A stretch of 5,984 nt of DNA from Candidatus Iainarchaeum sp. (lineage in GTDB: Archaea; Iainarchaeota; Iainarchaeia; Iainarchaeales; CSSED10-239), in assembly GCA_937968065.1 (NCBI GenBank), contig CALBUD010000061.1, positions 1 to 5,984 on the forward strand. The letters run 5' to 3'. The first letter of the stretch is position 1, and every line of letters starts with the position of its first letter. Shown here one piece after another: positions 113 to 5,984 of this stretch. The notes below the pieces were generated by a model. The model did no database searches and was not told the origin of the DNA. It saw only the letters and a program-made list of their open reading frames with translations. A program made the position numbers and the translations under genes.

Positions 113-622
113 ATGCCCCCATTAAAAAAACCAAACAGTCTTAGAAGAGAGATAAAAATAGAGACAAAAAAACATTTTAAAGAAAGTGGAGTTCTTTCTT
201 TTTATAAACAAAGAAAATCTACAACTAAAGATAAAATGCTTATTCAGTATACAAAAGCAAATGCAAATATACATCTTTTAGATTCAAAATTAAGTGTTTT
301 GTTTAGAAAAGGATTGTATAAAAATTCAAGAGAAGCAAAAAGAACTATTAAAAAATTTAAAGACATTTATGATGTTAGTCTTGATACTTTTTTAAAAAAA
401 TCAGAGGTGTATGTAAAGCAAAAGACACAATATGAATTATATAAAAATACAAGAGTTAGTGAACATCTTTTAGTTTCATTAACTTCAAGATATTCAAAAA
501 CATTAAATGAATTGGTTAGAAAATCAAATGATATAATTTTTATTGAAGATTTAAATCCTTTATTAGATAAAATTAAAAAAGATTTTTTTTATCTTTTTAA
601 AGATAGACCAAAACTTAACTAA
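113..622 (+). CDS. Hypothetical, highly basic protein (169 aa) with no confidently recognisable domain
   Basis: A 169-codon ORF is unlikely by chance in sequence where stop triplets are very frequent. AGGA (101..104) sits 8 nt upstream of the ATG, and the stop is TAA. The protein is Lys/Arg-rich with no Cys or Trp. It is separated from the downstream operon by an 88-nt spacer. The only motif noticed is DIIFIEDLN near the C-terminus (see findings). Confidence 0.5.
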   Translation: MPPLKKPNSLRREIKIETKKHFKESGVLSFYKQRKSTTKDKMLIQYTKANANIHLLDSKLSVLFRKGLYKNSREAKRTIKKFKDIYDVSLDTFLKKSEVYVKQKTQYELYKNTRVSEHLLVSLTSRYSKTLNELVRKSNDIIFIEDLNPLLDKIKKDFFYLFKDRPKLN

Positions 623-666: not shown

Positions 667-699
667 ATAAAACATTTATATAAAAACATTTTCTATAAT
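667..699 (+). promoter_or_regulatory. Candidate operon promoter upstream of glyA: tandem ATAAAACATTT / ATAAAAACATTT repeat, TTTATATA at 675..682, TATAAT at 694..699
   Basis: This lies in the only sizeable non-coding gap before the 8-gene cluster. ATAAAACATTT (667..677) is repeated as ATAAAAACATTT (680..691). TTTATATA is centred about 32 nt before the ATG, and TATAAT ends 11 nt before it. There is no G anywhere between 656 and the ATG at 711, so there is no Shine-Dalgarno sequence. Confidence 0.3.
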
Positions 700-710
700 A
701 AATATATTAA

Positions 711-1937
711 ATGAATAATATTCAACATATATTGGATCTTATAGATACAGAAAAAAAAAGACAACAAGAAACAATAGAACTTATAGCTTCAGAAAACATA
801 ACTTCAAAAAAAATAAGAAAAGCGTGTGGTTCTGTTCTTACAAATAAATATGCTGAAGGATATCCTTATAAAAGATATTATTCTGGTTGCATAAATGTTG
901 ATAAAATTGAAGAAATTGCAATGAATTCTTGTAAAAAACTATTTTCTTGTAACTTTGCAAATGTTCAACCTCATTCAGGATCAAATGCAAATGAAATTGC
1001 ATATTTTTCTTTACTTGAACCAAAAGATAAAATATTAGGTATGTCTCTTGATGCTGGTGGGCATTTAACACATGGGTATAAGATTAATTTTTCTGGTAAA
1101 AATTATGATTCTTTTTCTTATGGTTTAGATGATAAAGGATTTATTGATTATGAATCTCTTGAAAAAACAGCAAAAGAAATAAAACCAAAGATGATTGTTG
1201 CTGGAGCATCAGCATATCCTAGACAAATAGATTTTAAAAGATTTAGAGAGATTTCTAATTCTGTAGGTGCTTATCTTCTTGTTGATATGGCACATATAGC
1301 AGGTTTAATTGCAACTAATAATCATCCATCACCGGTTAAATATGCAGATATAGTTACATCCACTACACATAAGACACTAAGAGGCCCAAGAGGTGGATTT
1401 ATAATAACTAATAATGAAGAGATTTCAAAAAAAATAGATAAAGCTTGTTTTCCTGGTTTTCAAGGAGGGCCTTTAGAACATATTATTGCTGGTAAAGCAA
1501 TTTGTTTTGAAGAAGCTTTAAAACCTTCTTTTAAAAAATATCAAAAACAAGTTTTAAGAAATTCAAAAGTATTATCTGAAGAATTAATTAAATATGGTTT
1601 TGATCTTGTAACAAATGGAACTGATAATCATTTGATGCTTGTTGATCTTAGAAGTAAAGGAATTACAGGAAAAAAAGCAGAAGAAATTTTAGAAAACTGT
1701 AATATTTCTGTAAATAAAAATGCTATACCAAATGATCCTGAAAAACCTTTTATAACTTCTGGTATAAGGATAGGAACACCTGCTATAACTACAAGGGGAG
1801 TTAAAGAAGAAGGAATTAAAATTATTGGTAAGTTTATAAATGATGTTTTATCTTCTCCTGAAGATAAAAATAATCAGGAAAGAATAAAAGAGGAAGTTAT
1901 TTCTTTTTTAAAAAATTATTCTATTAATAAATTTTAA
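711..1937 (+). CDS. glyA: Serine hydroxymethyltransferase (tetrahydrofolate-dependent, bacterial type)
   Basis: The 408-aa protein is collinear with E. coli GlyA from memory. Matching motifs include [41 protein letters not shown], the PLP-lysine motif [14 protein letters not shown] (K221), FPG.QGGPL.H.IAGKA, GTDNHL.LVDL, NKN.IPNDP..PF.TSGIR.GTPA.TTRG. The TLRGPRGG form is the folate-type rather than the methanopterin-type motif. Confidence 0.97.
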
Positions 1938-1949
1938 AAGTGATAAAAT

Positions 1950-2369
1950 ATGAAAGTTTATTTTGCAGGATCAATTACTGGTGGAAGAGATGATCAAGAA
2001 ATCTATTTAGAGATTATTAATTATTTAAAAGAAAAAAAAATGAATGTTTTAACAGAACATCTTGCTGATAAAAATCTATCTAGTTATGGAGAAACGAAAC
2101 TTACAAGTAAAGAAATATTTAAAAGAGATGTTGAATGGATTAAAGATGCTGATCTTTTAATTGCTGAAGTTACACAAGTATCTTTAGGTGTTGGTTATGA
2201 GATTGGATTTGCAGAAAGTTTAGAAAAAAAAATAATTTGCCTTTATAGAGAAAAAGAAGGTGAAAGATTATCAGCTATGATTGATGGAAATGAAAATGTT
2301 AAAATAATTAAATATAAAGAATTAAAAGATTTAAACGAAAAATTAAATGAGATTATAGGAGAATTATAA
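1950..2369 (+). CDS. 2'-deoxynucleoside 5'-phosphate N-hydrolase, DNPH1/Rcl-like (nucleoside 2-deoxyribosyltransferase superfamily), apparently catalytically intact
   Basis: The 139-aa protein is near-collinear with mammalian DNPH1/Rcl as I remember it. Shared segments are VYFAGSITGGRDD (cf YFCGSIRGGRED), VLTEH, RDVEW..DADLLIAEVTQVSLGVGYEIG (cf QDLEW..ADVVVAEVTQPSLGVGYELG), IICLYR....ERLSAMIDG (cf ILCLFR...GRVLSAMIRG). Equivalents of the Rcl catalytic Tyr, Asp and Glu are present (Y4, D60, E84). An SD-like GTGA (1940..1943) lies 6 nt upstream of the ATG. Confidence 0.87.
   Translation: MKVYFAGSITGGRDDQEIYLEIINYLKEKKMNVLTEHLADKNLSSYGETKLTSKEIFKRDVEWIKDADLLIAEVTQVSLGVGYEIGFAESLEKKIICLYREKEGERLSAMIDGNENVKIIKYKELKDLNEKLNEIIGEL
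2181..2246 (+). repeat. Copy 1 of a 66-nt paralogous core block shared by the two DNPH1-like genes
   Basis: Ungapped hand alignment with 2595..2660 gives 52 of 66 identical positions, including 22 of the first 24. The block encodes SLGVGYEIGFAESLEKKIICLY. Confidence 0.8.
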
Positions 2370-2783
2370 ATGAAAATGTTTTTTACATATAAATCAAAAG
2401 GAAGTATTGATACTTCAGATAAATTAGAAAAAATAAATAACTTTCTTGAAAAGAAAGGAGAACTTTTAAGTAAAGATTTAAGATTAAAAAACTTTAAACC
2501 ATCTGGAGAAAAGATGAATGATAAAGACATACTTGACAGAAGTTTAAATTTAATTAAAGAATGTGATGTTTTTATTGCAGATGTTTCTTTTCCTTCTTTA
2601 GGTGTTGGATATCAGATTAATTTTGCAAAAAATCTTAATAAAAAAATAATTTGTTTATATGAAGTTCAAGTAAAACAAGAACTTTCTCCAATTATTAATA
2701 GAGATAACTATATTCATTTAATAAAATATAAAGATTTAGAAGAGATGTTTATTCAACTAGAATTATATTTTAAAAGGTTATAA
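2370..2783 (+). CDS. Degenerate DNPH1/nucleoside 2-deoxyribosyltransferase-like paralogue, predicted non-catalytic (nucleophile Glu replaced by Gln)
   Basis: The 137-aa ORF has its ATG directly abutting the upstream TAA (TAAATG at 2367..2372). A strong AGGAG (2357..2361) lies 8 nt upstream, inside the preceding gene. The core CDVFIADVSFPSLGVGYQINFAKNLNKKIICLY aligns without gaps to ADLLIAEVTQVSLGVGYEIGFAESLEKKIICLY of the upstream gene. Q82 replaces E84 (cag at 2613..2615 versus gag at 2199..2201). S58 aligns to D60. The N-terminal loop is GSIDTS instead of GSITGGR. Confidence 0.75.
   Translation: MKMFFTYKSKGSIDTSDKLEKINNFLEKKGELLSKDLRLKNFKPSGEKMNDKDILDRSLNLIKECDVFIADVSFPSLGVGYQINFAKNLNKKIICLYEVQVKQELSPIINRDNYIHLIKYKDLEEMFIQLELYFKRL
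2595..2660 (+). repeat. Copy 2 of the 66-nt paralogous core block shared by the two DNPH1-like genes
   Basis: See 2181..2246. The block encodes SLGVGYQINFAKNLNKKIICLY, and 52 of 66 nt are identical by hand alignment. Confidence 0.8.
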
Positions 2784-2786
2784 GAT

Positions 2787-3290
2787 ATGAAAGGAAGAAA
2801 TAACTTAACTAACATTAAAAAAAATATTAAAAAAGACATTGGGAAAACCATAAATCCTAAAAACAGCTTTTCTGGATCTATTAATCTATTGAAAAGTTAT
2901 AAAGAATCTAAATCTAAAAACCCAATATTTGAAAGATTGAGAAAAGATAATATGAATTTAGCAATATTAAATAGTAGAGCTAACATTCTATTAAAAAAAA
3001 ATCTAAATCCAGATTTGGCATTTTCTATTCATGAAAAAATAACTAATATTGAAAATGTAGTTTTTAGTCATTCTCAAAAGATGATTACTTTAGAAAGGAT
3101 TATTAAAGAAAAAGGTAATTTTGCAGAAAATGTCGGTAATAGTTATCAAATTAAAAAAATAGTTGAAATTGATAAAAAATATAAAAAATATTTTTCAGAA
3201 GTTATGAAAAAATCAAATCAAGTAGATAACTTAAATGATTTAAATAAATTATTAACATATTATGAAAAACTGTTTAAAACAATTTTATAA
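2787..3290 (+). CDS. Hypothetical Lys/Asn-rich protein (167 aa), an orphan embedded in the operon
   Basis: The ATG is 3 nt after the upstream stop, with AAGGT (2774..2778) 8 nt upstream. The 167 codons contain no stop in very AT-rich DNA. There is no Cys or Trp, no hydrophobic segment long enough for a membrane helix, and no signal-peptide-like N-terminus. I recognise no catalytic motif. The composition suggests a mostly helical soluble protein. Confidence 0.6.
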   Translation: MKGRNNLTNIKKNIKKDIGKTINPKNSFSGSINLLKSYKESKSKNPIFERLRKDNMNLAILNSRANILLKKNLNPDLAFSIHEKITNIENVVFSHSQKMITLERIIKEKGNFAENVGNSYQIKKIVEIDKKYKKYFSEVMKKSNQVDNLNDLNKLLTYYEKLFKTIL

Positions 3291-3310
3291 AATTAAAAAT
3301 TAGGAAAAAT

Positions 3311-4000
3311 ATGAAAGGAAAATTAATTGTTATAGATGGAACTGATGGTACTGGAAAACATACACAAACAATGCTTTTAAAAGAAAATCTTGAAAAATTA
3401 GGATATTTTGTAGAAACTATTGATTTTCCACAATATGGAACTAAATCTGCAGGACCAACTGAAGATTATCTTAATGGTAAATATGGGTCTGCAAACGATG
3501 TTACTCCTTATCAAGCATCTGTTCTTTATGCTGTTGATAGATTTGCAGCATCTTTTAAAATAAAAGAATGGTTAAATCAAGGAAAAGTTGTTCTTTGTGA
3601 TAGATATGTTTCAGCAAATATGGGACATCAAGCAGGAAAGATAAAAGATTTAAAAGAAAGAGATAAATTTCTAGAATGGTTATTTGATTTAGAATTTAAT
3701 ATTTTTAAGATACCAGAACCAGATATTAATATTTTATTATATTTGGATGTTGATCTTGCAAGAAGTCTTGCTCAAAAAAATGAATCTAAAAAATTTACAA
3801 ATGATGTTAAAAAAAACGATATTCATGAAAAAGATCCAGAGCATATGAAAAAAGCACTAGAATCTTTTTTATATGTTGCTGATAAATATAATTGGATAAA
3901 AATTGATTGTACTGATAAAGAAATTGGAATAAAAACAAGAGAAGAAATCTCAAAAATAATTTTTGATAAAATAAAAGAAAAAGGAGTTTTTAACATATGA
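3311..4000 (+). CDS. tmk: Thymidylate (dTMP) kinase
   Basis: The P-loop is LIVIDGTDGTGKHTQ (G10..T18) and the DRY motif is VVLCDRYVSAN (D97-R98-Y99). Downstream come EPDINILLYLDVD plus a lid-like segment. The overall length of 229 aa and the architecture fit the Tmk family. AGGA (3302..3305) lies 5 nt upstream of the ATG. The TGA stop overlaps the thyA start (ATGA at 3997..4000). Confidence 0.9.
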   Translation: MKGKLIVIDGTDGTGKHTQTMLLKENLEKLGYFVETIDFPQYGTKSAGPTEDYLNGKYGSANDVTPYQASVLYAVDRFAASFKIKEWLNQGKVVLCDRYVSANMGHQAGKIKDLKERDKFLEWLFDLEFNIFKIPEPDINILLYLDVDLARSLAQKNESKKFTNDVKKNDIHEKDPEHMKKALESFLYVADKYNWIKIDCTDKEIGIKTREEISKIIFDKIKEKGVFNI

Positions 4001-4863
4001 AAGCATACTTAAGTATTATAAAAAAAATTATAGAAAAAGGAGAAGTTAAAGATAATAGAACTGGTGTTAACACACTTGCTATTGCTGGAGCTATGTTTGA
4101 ACATGATATGGAAGATGGATTTCCATTACTTACAACTAAAAGTGTTCCATTTAGACTTGTTGCATCAGAACTTGAATTTTTCATAAAAGGACTTACAGAT
4201 AAACAATGGTTAATTAAAGAAAATAATCATATCTGGGATGAATGGTGTTCTCCTGATATTGTTCCTTATGGAACTGATGAAGAAACAAAATATAAAATGA
4301 AAGAAGAAAGAGAACTTGGACCTATCTATGGTTGGCAATGGAGGCATTTTGGAGCAAAATATACTTCTTTTGATAAAGCACCTGAAGGTAATGGTATTGA
4401 TCAACTTAAAAAAATGGTTGAAACTTTAAAAAAAAATCCAAATGATAGAAGAATGATTGTTTCTGCATGGAATCCTATAGATATACACCGAATGGCTCTT
4501 CCACCTTGCCATTATGGTTTTCAAGTTACAGTTATTAATGGAAAATTAAATCTTTTATGGAATCAAAGATCTGTTGATTCTGCTTTAGGCCTACCTTTTA
4601 ATATTGCAAGTTATGGTTTACTTTTACATTTACTTGCAAAAGAAGCAGGTCTTAAAGAAGGTAAACTAATTGGATTTTTAGGAGACACTCACATTTATGA
4701 AAATCATATTGAAGGTTTAAAAGAACAACTTAAAAGAGAACCCTTTACTTTACCAAAAATAATAACCAAAAATTTTAAATCTATTTTTGATTGGAAATAT
4801 ACAGATTCAGAAATTATTGATTATAAAAAACATCCACCAATAAAGTTTGAAATTGCAGTTTAG
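3997..4863 (+). CDS. thyA: Thymidylate synthase, ThyA type (canonical, reductive methylation)
   Basis: The 288-aa protein is collinear with E. coli and human TS from memory. Conserved positions are DNRTG (R21), E58, IWDEW, LGPIYGWQWRHFG, NPNDRRMIVSAWNP (R151/R152), MALPPCH (nucleophile C171), NQRSVD (D194), LGLPFNIASY (N202, the dUMP-specifying Asn), GDTHIY (H232, Y234), and a C-terminus ...KFEIAV like human ...MEMAV. The short insert after IWDEW resembles the human and B. subtilis ThyA-type proteins. AAGGAG (3981..3986) lies 10 nt upstream, and the 4-nt ATGA overlap with tmk implies translational coupling. Confidence 0.97.
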   Translation: MKAYLSIIKKIIEKGEVKDNRTGVNTLAIAGAMFEHDMEDGFPLLTTKSVPFRLVASELEFFIKGLTDKQWLIKENNHIWDEWCSPDIVPYGTDEETKYKMKEERELGPIYGWQWRHFGAKYTSFDKAPEGNGIDQLKKMVETLKKNPNDRRMIVSAWNPIDIHRMALPPCHYGFQVTVINGKLNLLWNQRSVDSALGLPFNIASYGLLLHLLAKEAGLKEGKLIGFLGDTHIYENHIEGLKEQLKREPFTLPKIITKNFKSIFDWKYTDSEIIDYKKHPPIKFEIAV

Positions 4864-4886: not shown

Positions 4887-5366
4887 ATGAAAGAAATAAT
4901 AATTATTGCAGCTGTTTCAAAGAACAATGTTATTGGAAAAGATAATAAGATACCATGGTATATTAAAGAAGATTTTCTTCATTTTAAAGAACTAACAACA
5001 GGGTATCCTATAATAATGGGAAAAAAAACCTTCTTATCTTTACCAAAAAAACCTTTACCTAACAGAACAAATATTGTTTTAACATTTAAAGAAGATAATT
5101 TTACTTATCCTGAAATAATTATTAAAAATTCTTTAGAAGATGCAATAAATTTTGGACATTCTTTAAATGATAAGATATATATTATTGGAGGAGCTTTTGT
5201 TTATAAACAAGCAATTTCTCTTGCAACTAAACTTGAAATTACAAGAATTGATAAAGAATATGAGGGAGATACTTTCTTTCCTGAGATTAATTTAAATATT
5301 TGGAAAATTATTAAAGAAGAGAAACATGATGGTTATTCTTTTTTAACATACATTAAAAAGATGTGA
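4887..5366 (+). CDS. folA: Dihydrofolate reductase (FolA type)
   Basis: The 159-aa protein begins with IIAAVSKNNVIGKDNKIPW.IKEDF.HFK, with D29 aligning to E. coli D27. Other motifs are PIIMGKKTF.SLP.KPLPNRTNIVLT, IYIIGGAFVYKQ, L.ITRID.EYEGDTFFPE. AGGA (4874..4877) lies 9 nt upstream, and the stop is TGA. Confidence 0.93.
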   Translation: MKEIIIIAAVSKNNVIGKDNKIPWYIKEDFLHFKELTTGYPIIMGKKTFLSLPKKPLPNRTNIVLTFKEDNFTYPEIIIKNSLEDAINFGHSLNDKIYIIGGAFVYKQAISLATKLEITRIDKEYEGDTFFPEINLNIWKIIKEEKHDGYSFLTYIKKM

Positions 5367-5371
5367 AAAAT

Positions 5372-5984
5372 ATGACAATTGCATTAGTTGATAAAAATAT
5401 TAAAGAATTAATTTTTAAAAAAGTTTTTAAATCAGAATTTGATTTAAAAAAATATGTACAACCTGCAAGTTTAGATATACCTATTGGTAGTAAAGCATAT
5501 CTTATTAATGAAAAATTTATTCCATTTAAAAAAAATATTGAAAAAATAATTAAAGAAAATAATGTTATAGAAATGGATATAACAAAAGGAAAAGTACTTT
5601 ATAAAAATCAAACTTATTTAATACCTACAATTGAAGTTAATCTTTCAAAAGATTATTATATTAAGATAAGTCCTAAAAGTTCAATAGGGAGAATAGATTT
5701 ATTTGTAAGAGGTATTATTGATAATATTGGATATTATGATTATATTCCTTCTAAAACAAAAGGAAGATTATGGCTTGAAATTACACCGCAATCTTTTAAT
5801 GTTAAGATTAAAAAAGGTATTAGTCTAACACAATTAATGGTTCTTAGAAATAAAGAAAATAAAAATATAGATTTAAAAAATGAAAAAATAATGTATGATA
5901 ATAAAAATAGACTTATAAAAAATAATATTTATGATAAAAATAAAATTGTTTTATCATTAAATTTAAATAAAAATGATATATTTG
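5372..5984 (+). CDS. dcd: 2'-deoxycytidine 5'-triphosphate deaminase family protein, long (DCD/PF06559-like) type; 5' part only, truncated by the window end
   Basis: This ORF is not in the supplied track because it has no stop. I translated it by hand from the ATG at 5372, 5 nt after the folA stop, with GTGA at 5363..5366. It gives 204 complete codons with no stop through 5983. The protein is MTIALVDKNIKEL...VQPASLDIPIGSKAY...ISPKSSIGRIDLFVRGIIDN...GRLWLEITPQSF.V.I..G..L.Q. This matches the QPASLDLRLG, NPKSSTGRLD.FTR and L.LEI.P motifs I recall for the roughly 360-aa alphaproteobacterial-type DCD. It also matches the GRSS..R and VLEF (catalytic Glu, here E136) motifs of classical Dcd. Confidence 0.8.
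   Translation, partial: MTIALVDKNIKELIFKKVFKSEFDLKKYVQPASLDIPIGSKAYLINEKFIPFKKNIEKIIKENNVIEMDITKGKVLYKNQTYLIPTIEVNLSKDYYIKISPKSSIGRIDLFVRGIIDNIGYYDYIPSKTKGRLWLEITPQSFNVKIKKGISLTQLMVLRNKENKNIDLKNEKIMYDNKNRLIKNNIYDKNKIVLSLNLNKNDIF

Follow-up and report, generated by a model that had tools for sequence, protein, structure and literature searches.

What is known of the biology of DNPH1 (Rcl), a 2'-deoxynucleoside 5'-phosphate N-hydrolase, comes almost entirely from mammalian cells, in which 5-hydroxymethyl-dUMP (hmdUMP or 5hmdUMP) stems from 5-hydroxymethylcytosine turnover, and the enzyme is a current cancer drug target, the loss of which potentiates PARP inhibitors. We report here on two adjacent DNPH1-like genes, DNPH1-A and DNPH1-B, in a stretch of 5984 nt (contig CALBUD010000061.1; referred to as the window) with 24% GC and nine open reading frames (ORFs), every one on the + strand. 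Judged from its sequence DNPH1-A is a genuine DNPH1 orthologue, predicted to be catalytically competent, while DNPH1-B is a catalytically dead paralogue. We give an even chance to the explanation that DNPH1-A is a sanitiser of 5-substituted dUMP (hmdUMP-type) acting before the dTMP kinase Tmk, with DNPH1-B as a non-catalytic dimer partner. The gene identity as such is already known, i.e. JGI pipelines name such proteins 2'-deoxynucleoside 5'-phosphate N-hydrolase; our literature search found no paper that deals with DNPH1 in prokaryotes, with a link of the gene to tmk, dut or thyA, or with a dead paralogue.

Human DNPH1 has a kcat/KM of 52,380 M-1 s-1 on 5hmdUMP compared with 27 M-1 s-1 on dUMP, an approximately 2000-fold difference (PMC10483697). 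In this enzyme the glycosyl-enzyme is released by water that Glu55 activates, while the base O2 is read by His56, the TEH motif being the mark of a hydrolase. Each active site also takes in Ser128, Ala129 and Met130 from the neighbouring subunit, and the helix with these residues positions the hydroxymethyl group (PMC10603095). Among other described systems, MilB and BcmB are PF05014 enzymes that, like DNPH1-A, are encoded beside a thymidylate synthase (TS)-family enzyme (MilA and BcmA, respectively), and they share with our proposal for DNPH1-A a 5-substituted pyrimidine nucleotide as substrate. In the MilA/MilB case, however, the nucleotide is turned into a product, whereas the TS encoded here is predicted to be a genuine dTMP synthase and DNPH1-A would remove an unwanted nucleotide. 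In Z-genome phages, DmtZ of the nucleoside deoxyribosyltransferase (NDT) superfamily is encoded beside, or fused to, the dUTPase-type enzyme DutZ and the deoxynucleoside monophosphate (dNMP) pool is reshaped (PMC12884076), which is comparable to the order tmk-DNPH1-dut in Patescibacteria (see below). Unlike DNPH1-A, which has the hydrolase set of residues, DmtZ is dAMP-specific with Asn/Asp at D80/R30 and a transferase-type Pro, and it transfers deoxyribose 5-phosphate (dR5P). Finally, the Lactobacillus-type NDT and PDT enzymes have PF05014 membership and the Glu nucleophile in common with DNPH1-A, but they use nucleosides and transfer to a base, while DNPH1 acts on 5'-phosphates.

DNPH1-A (positions 1950..2369; PF05014, E 2.8e-17) has as its best PDB matches rat Rcl (E 3e-28; 50% identity over 113 aa) and human DNPH1, there named '5-hydroxymethyl-dUMP N-hydrolase' (E 6e-27), whereas MilB and BcmB match with E 4e-6 to 1e-4 and NDT only marginally (E 1e-3 or worse). 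For mapping of functional residues 16 positions were tabulated (human numbering) from PMC10603095 and PMC10483697, and 15 of these are identical in DNPH1-A: Tyr24, Gly27, Gly31, Arg33, Thr54, Glu55, His56, Ile76, Asp80, Trp83, Ser98, Glu104 and Ser128-Ala129-Met130. Specifically, the triad Tyr24/Asp80/Glu104 is present as Y4, D60 and E84, the LTEHV motif (with Glu55 and His56) reads LTEHL, and the 5'-phosphate site is complete (the GSITGG loop, S78, G80 and S108-A-M). These 15 positions are approximately 98-100% conserved across 80 prokaryotic homologues and the LTEHV motif is conserved in 79 of them. Thus, DNPH1-A resembles animal DNPH1/Rcl (PDB 2khz, 4fyh, 8os9 and 8qhq) in fold, in the Tyr/Asp/Glu triad, in LTEH, in the Ser/Gly phosphate site and in the Ser-Ala-Met helix provided in trans, as well as in its predicted chemistry, dNMP to base plus deoxyribose 5-phosphate via a covalent Glu intermediate. 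The PDB matches and the conserved functional residues bear out the initial annotation of the first copy as a bona fide DNPH1-type enzyme. The ratio of non-synonymous to synonymous substitution rates (dN/dS) is 0.28-0.36 for DNPH1-A, compared with values of 0.06-0.22 in the four genes glyA, tmk, thyA and folA.

The single tabulated position that differs is Arg30, which is Thr10 in DNPH1-A, and the residue corresponding to its salt-bridge partner Asp73 is also not Asp; together with its location in a prokaryotic operon with tmk, thyA, folA, glyA and dcd this sets DNPH1-A apart from the animal enzyme. Among the 80 prokaryotic homologues position 30 is Arg in 68, and Thr or Ser is found only in the clade of the window. 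In human DNPH1 Arg30 (with Asp73) contacts base O4 through water, and since the R30A change costs only approximately 6-fold activity (PMC10603095), Thr at this position does not exclude DNPH1 membership, though specificity may shift; in the phage enzyme DmtZ the equivalent residue sets base specificity (PMC12884076).

DNPH1-B (2370..2783; PF05014, E 1e-4, which is under the gathering score) is 41% identical to DNPH1-A, with the highest similarity in the SLGVGY...KKIICLY core, and it matches Rcl in the PDB (E 3e-11). The confident AlphaFold2 model (pLDDT 88, pTM 0.85) has human DNPH1 chains as top Foldseek matches (TM 0.75-0.84), i.e. as modelled DNPH1-B has the DNPH1 fold. The residues needed for the reaction are replaced: Y24F, D80S, W83L, E104Q, TEH to SKD (LSKDL) and GSIxGGR to TYKSKGS. 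Retained are SLGVGY and the equivalents of Ser98 and Ser128, the latter being followed in B-like proteins by Pro, Leu or Ser and then Ile. The other three B-like sequences known show the same losses, with Phe, Asn and either Gln or Leu at the triad positions. Since the catalytic Tyr, Asp and Glu are lost along with TEH and the phosphate-binding loop, DNPH1-B is predicted to be unable to catalyse DNPH1 chemistry, and the proposal that the second copy is a pseudoenzyme therefore stands.

A phmmer search of 1.84 billion representatives returned a single B-like cluster (7e-36), the next match being ordinary DNPH1 (6.5e-19), and scans of metagenome contigs for additional B-like loci, made with back-translated query patterns that are of low complexity, found none. 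B-like genes are present in about 16 related contigs, each beside an active copy, also where the gene order is reversed (loci L085-L087). The DNPH1-B start codon directly abuts the DNPH1-A stop codon (0 nt) in the window, overlaps it by 4 nt in L083 and follows after a 3-nt gap in L084. Moreover, the dN/dS of 0.32-0.50 shows that DNPH1-B is under purifying selection and not a decaying pseudogene. Because it keeps the fold and the Ser that is donated in trans, has a dN/dS below 1 and is constantly adjacent to an active copy, DNPH1-B is most likely a non-catalytic heterodimer partner of DNPH1-A, which is also the most economical reading of the sequence data; animal DNPH1, in contrast, is a homodimer. 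We also noted a 312-aa protein (P0139) with two complete, apparently active DNPH1 domains in tandem fusion, both with the GYE nucleophile motif; such a predicted covalent dimer fits a DNPH1 family that works as a two-subunit unit.

To survey the gene context more widely, we used one genome per GTDB species and the 80 best DNPH1 loci, which were searched with the window proteins within a range of 7 kb. Thymidylate genes were present in 19 of the 80 loci, the counts being tmk 16, dut/dcd 15, glyA 13, thyA 10, folA 7, dCMP deaminase 4 and NUDIX 4. The 19 linked loci are nearly all from Patescibacteria, where tmk-DNPH1-dut and glyA...DNPH1-(NUDIX)-tmk are recurrent orders, and when clustered at 60% identity they form 8 groups (16 at 70%). 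The most common Pfam families among the direct neighbours (n=152) are Tmk (6), dUTPase (5), ThyA (3), NUDIX (3), SHMT (2), dNK (2) and the ITPase-like DUF84 (2), an enrichment with p ~2e-14 against a background of 1.5%, while tmk is within 50 nt of DNPH1 in seven loci (p ~2e-9); both are rough binomial values that are optimistic, the loci having shared ancestry. The comparative check that was proposed together with the initial annotation thus turned out positive, with the neighbourhood kept in relatives (see below) and thymidylate genes near DNPH1 in almost a quarter of the 80 loci. Furthermore, an action of the enzyme ahead of Tmk agrees with tmk being the most common direct neighbour and with the presence of the pool-cleaning dUTPase and NUDIX genes.

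The enzyme family, the hydrolase residue set and the recurrent neighbourhood with tmk and pool cleaners form the basis for our suggestion that DNPH1-A is a sanitiser of the nucleotide pool in its dU/dT branch. With Glu84 as the nucleophile, aided by Tyr4, Asp60 and the Glu36-His37 'TEH' pair, DNPH1-A would cut the N-glycosidic bond of a 2'-deoxy-pyrimidine 5'-monophosphate to give the free base and deoxyribose 5-phosphate. A 5-substituted dUMP would in this way be destroyed before Tmk starts its conversion to a DNA precursor. The best candidate is hmdUMP, because the human orthologue prefers it by approximately 2000-fold and DNPH1-A has retained both the Ser128' helix and His56, i.e. the elements for reading of the hydroxymethyl group and of the uracil O2. 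DNPH1-B would pair with DNPH1-A such that the Ser-Pro-Ile helix of DNPH1-B enters the composite active site of DNPH1-A. The proposed function is similar to that of dUTPase, NUDIX/MutT and ITPase-like DUF84 proteins, all recurrent DNPH1 neighbours, in that a non-canonical precursor is removed before it reaches the polymerase. While these enzymes act on triphosphates by pyrophosphohydrolysis, DNPH1 would act one step earlier, on the monophosphate, and cut off the base.

Several points weigh against this explanation. The substrate is deduced from orthology and context, and given Thr/Ser at R30 the specificity of DNPH1-A may differ from that of the human enzyme. The loci in the survey are not phylogenetically independent, which makes the p-values optimistic, and 61 of the 80 DNPH1 loci are without thymidylate context, hence the link is not universal. 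DNPH1-B is absent from two related loci, L081 and L060, which implies that DNPH1-A works without DNPH1-B and that the latter is an accessory. Finally, the assignment of the hosts to the archaeal domain is indirect, based on the label of L060, the D-aminoacyl-tRNA deacylase DTD2 in L085 and the helix-turn-helix (HTH) families in L083.

Near-identical DNPH1 active sites are present in hundreds of bacteria and archaea, many directly beside tmk, dut, thyA or NUDIX genes, and these two features suggest that the ancestral job of DNPH1 is cleaning of the thymidine-nucleotide pool at the monophosphate step. A bolder version, which we consider possible though rather doubtful, is that DNPH1 has guarded the thymidylate branch since ancient times, together with dUTPase and NUDIX enzymes, and that in one DPANN lineage it has turned into an obligate, asymmetric A:B heterodimer. 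The DNPH1-B helix provided in trans, which would touch the base and the 5-substituent, would then retune which modified dUMPs the one live site destroys before Tmk. If true, DNPH1 would for the first time have a physiological rationale in organisms other than animals, and the family a natural pseudoenzyme partner, likewise the first. The occurrence of DNPH1 in bacteria and archaea offers simple microbial systems for studies of its substrate range and the physiological need for it, and the conserved dead paralogue represents a natural experiment on how specificity is set in an active site built from two subunits. In symbionts with minimal genomes that live on scavenged nucleotides, the finding points to a quality-control step in salvage.

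In the window the DNPH1 pair is preceded by glyA (711..1937; PF00464 E 9e-162, NF000586 E 2e-184), which encodes serine hydroxymethyltransferase, the supplier of methylene-tetrahydrofolate, and is followed by an ORF for a 167-aa protein without family match, predicted to be all-helical (2787..3290). Downstream of this slot are tmk (3311..4000; PF02223 E 7e-20, NF005923 E 5e-35), thyA for a canonical folate-dependent TS (3997..4863; PF00303 E 2.5e-97), folA for dihydrofolate reductase (4887..5366; PF00186 E 7e-51) and dcd for a long-type dCTP deaminase (5372..5984; PF06559 DCD_N E 9e-33), which is partial at the window end. The gaps from glyA to dcd are, in order, 12, 0, 3, 20, -4, 23 and 5 nt, where the negative value is the overlap of the thyA start with the tmk end. 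The initial annotation had the DNPH1-like genes embedded in a tightly packed thymidylate cluster, in agreement with the ORF coordinates, the common strand and gaps of at most 23 nt. It was also right in locating the pair between glyA and tmk, but it passed over the third inserted gene (2787..3290), even though the junctions it listed include this gene.

The genes glyA, DNPH1-A, DNPH1-B, the 167-aa ORF, tmk, thyA, folA and dcd are, as judged from their spacing, likely to form one transcription unit, and the window probably represents a thymidylate-supply operon of a very AT-rich archaeon of DPANN type. Short Shine-Dalgarno-like strings (GGAG, AGGT and AGGA) are present ahead of DNPH1-B, the 167-aa ORF and tmk. 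A scan of the window found no terminator-like hairpin, and 43 sigma-70-like matches compared with 46.5 expected from shuffles, a scan that concerns sigma-70 sites and not archaeal promoters. Reading by eye, we noted TTTATATA (675..682, + strand), approximately 30 nt before the glyA ATG, as a possible archaeal TATA box; it is a weak candidate that would fit a near-leaderless glyA transcript, and it is unremarkable for the local composition of approximately 19% GC (GC fraction 0.186-0.208 across the covering windows). The Rfam search gave no riboswitch or other RNA, with a single match far under the threshold, and no tRNA genes were found in the related loci.

Among close relatives, the order glyA-A-B-hyp-tmk-thyA-folA-dcd (A and B, DNPH1-A and DNPH1-B; hyp, hypothetical protein) is the same in L083, and L084 has glyA-A-B-hyp-tmk-thyA..., while L081 has glyA-A-tmk-thyA-folA. 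A variant order, tmk-glyA-hyp-A-thyA-folA-(kinase/dCMP deaminase), is found in L060, which carries the label 'MAG: archaeon'. In L085-L087 (13 contigs) the order is purA-glyA-B-A-tmk-HAD-hyp-ThyX-(kinase/dCMP deaminase), that is, with the DNPH1 pair reversed and, in the L085 lineage, with the flavin-dependent ThyX instead of ThyA and FolA. The recurrence of the cluster in these loci and in Patescibacteria makes it unlikely that the arrangement is due to chance; an absence of the neighbourhood from all relatives, named with the initial annotation as the outcome that would speak against it, was not observed. The hosts are probably DPANN-type archaea, given the 'archaeon' label of L060, the archaeal DTD2 encoded in L085 and the neighbours in L083 that match archaeal HTH families.

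In L081, thyA (9127-9993) is interrupted by an in-frame TAA at 9760 and, close to the end of the gene, by a frameshift; folA (10009-10491) contains an in-frame TGA at 10387, whereas glyA, DNPH1 and tmk beside them are intact. The NCBI and Logan assemblies are identical over the thyA-folA region. Stop-codon recoding was considered and rejected, as TAA, TAG and TGA all terminate normal genes there, and the sequence looks like a recent loss of de novo dTMP synthesis, or else assembly errors.

A different explanation for the DNPH1 gene in this setting is repair of a TS side product, i.e. DNPH1-A would hydrolyse hmdUMP formed when water captures the methylene-dUMP intermediate. Some ThyA mutants have been reported to release 5hmdUMP, but no appreciable release is known for wild-type TS. 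The ThyA encoded in the window shows no sign of being a leaky variant: its top 60 PDB matches are all thymidylate synthases (E 5e-80), the PPCH, NQRSVD (QRS-D) and FNIAS motifs align with those of canonical TS, it scores 305 bits on TIGR03284 (cut-off 108) and folA is adjacent. On these sequence criteria it is a canonical TS and not a dUMP/dCMP hydroxymethylase. DNPH1 is co-located with thyA both here and in 10 of the 80 loci, but the link to tmk (16 loci, seven of them at 50 nt or less) and to dut is tighter, and L081 has kept DNPH1 and tmk intact beside the interrupted thyA and folA. The replacement of ThyA by ThyX in L085 is neutral on the question of TS as source, because acid trapping of ThyX intermediates has also yielded 5hmdUMP (PMC3498832), and with the pair beside ThyX in that lineage either type of TS is a possible source. 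Taken together, these data argue against ThyA as the source of hmdUMP, which the initial annotation had favoured, and we consider repair of a TS side product improbable; in organisms that scavenge nucleotides, a ThyA side reaction is a less likely origin of the aberrant nucleotide than thymidine nucleotides that are salvaged, oxidised or foreign.

Patescibacteria and DPANN live by scavenging, and DNPH1-A might therefore serve general dNMP catabolism or salvage, in which ordinary scavenged dNMPs are split into bases and deoxyribose 5-phosphate to supply a symbiont of reduced genome with carbon and energy. A broad dNMP N-glycosidase activity was originally ascribed to the family, and in L085 a predicted HAD-family sugar-phosphate or nucleotide phosphatase encoded downstream of tmk could dephosphorylate deoxyribose 5-phosphate or dNMPs. 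A second recurrent context, with deoC, deoB or nucleoside phosphorylases, was nevertheless not found among the 152 direct neighbours, the remainder of which are heterogeneous. A non-selective dNMP destroyer inside an operon for dTMP synthesis would be futile, and the human enzyme is approximately 2000-fold poorer on dUMP than on hmdUMP (PMC10483697). We therefore regard catabolism as an unlikely function.

It is very unlikely that DNPH1-A is a DmtZ-like phosphodeoxyribosyl-transferase, which would move deoxyribose 5-phosphate from a dNMP to free thymine or uracil to give dTMP or dUMP. DmtZ is of the same superfamily, adjoins or is fused to a dUTPase-like gene, and hydrolyses dAMP besides transferring dR5P (PMC12884076), and its arrangement is resembled by the tmk-DNPH1-dut order in Patescibacteria. 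DNPH1-A, however, keeps the water-activating Glu of TEH and the full hydrolase residue set (PMC10603095), and it is far nearer to animal DNPH1 (50% identity) than to the transferases in PDB. This candidate function was rejected on the residues.

We give very little credence to control of pool size, where DNPH1-A would trim dUMP/dTMP and DNPH1-B act as a nucleotide-binding sensor. The genes are co-located with those for every enzyme from dUMP to dTDP, and the human E104Q variant binds substrate without cleavage (PMC10603095), with Gln occurring naturally at that position in DNPH1-B. The loss of the phosphate-binding glycine loop, the base-reading His and the Trp makes binding by DNPH1-B doubtful, there is no regulatory domain, and hydrolysis of the pathway's own product would be wasteful. 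Hence, we see no evidence for the pseudoenzyme as a sensor, as had been proposed earlier, and a role as heterodimer partner is more economical.

Nucleotide-depleting defences exist, and DNPH1-A could in principle destroy the hmdUMP of viruses that replace thymine with hydroxymethyluracil (hmU), which we consider highly improbable. Many phages do make hmdUMP with a ThyA homologue (PMC3498832, PMC5889632), but the gene context is that of a housekeeping operon rather than a defence island, and no hmU viruses are known for these hosts. With PADLOC the best E-value for DNPH1-A was 1.6e-3, which is marginal, and DNPH1-B and the 113-622 and 2787-3290 ORFs gave no match; a defence system was rejected on this search and the gene context.

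The chance is close to negligible for a MilA/MilB-type biosynthetic pair, a known operonic combination of a TS homologue (MilA) that modifies a nucleotide and a PF05014 enzyme (MilB) that frees the base for a secondary metabolite (PMC5175136, PMC10603095): although MilB and BcmB are among the PDB matches of DNPH1-A, a MilB-type function is largely refuted by Tyr instead of the MilB Phe at Y24 (deoxyribose rather than ribose) and His instead of Glu at H56 (uracil rather than cytosine; PMC10603095), and the TS is canonical with an adjoining folA and no tailoring genes.

In the relatives some further differences around the cluster were observed. In L085 (6863-10816), genes for Tmk, the HAD phosphatase, a hypothetical protein, ThyX and a fusion of P-loop kinase and dCMP deaminase are found in place of tmk-thyA-folA-dcd, so that, judged from the sequence, the synthase and the dUMP supplier have both been exchanged for non-orthologous enzymes. 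The kinase-dCMP deaminase fusion (L060, 6179-7273; L085, 9737-10816) has a weak NCBIfam match to 'anti-phage dCTP deaminase' (99 bits, cut-off 400) and is, given the housekeeping context, probably an ordinary dUMP supplier that shares this architecture. Downstream of folA the window has the long-type dCTP deaminase (DCD_N; 5372-5984); the corresponding position in L083 is occupied by a short Dcd/dUTPase-like protein of 174 aa (11061-11585), and no similarity between the two was detected with tblastn. In L060, glyA (2496-3721) is broken by a disruption of the frame into two ORFs of 257 and 109 aa and represents either a pseudogene or a sequencing error.

Two ORFs in the window, 113..622 upstream of glyA (169 aa, Lys/Asn-rich) and 2787..3290, had no match in Pfam, NCBIfam, PADLOC or PHROGs. 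The two proteins are distant paralogues (26% identity over 130 aa, E 1e-5), and the first is 41% identical to the ORF at the same position in L083. The second had a single homologue in a search of 5.8 billion proteins; its AlphaFold2 model is all-helical (pLDDT 75) and gave no Foldseek match at E<=1e-3. An unrelated ORF of 177 aa takes its place in L083. In L084, the corresponding slot has an ORF (2529-3032) with a product that shares 91% identity with the 2787-3290 protein, at a synonymous divergence (dS) of 0.17, whereas the flanking genes are 61-84% identical with dS 0.5-0.65, and this difference suggests that the gene was recently exchanged alone between lineages. Lys/Asn-rich helical proteins of 167-192 aa are encoded upstream of glyA and, in some genomes, within the thymidylate cluster; apart from the two in the window, the family includes L081 5787-6365 (30% identical to the 2787-3290 protein), L083 4983-5495 and 5505-6038, and the L084 ORF.

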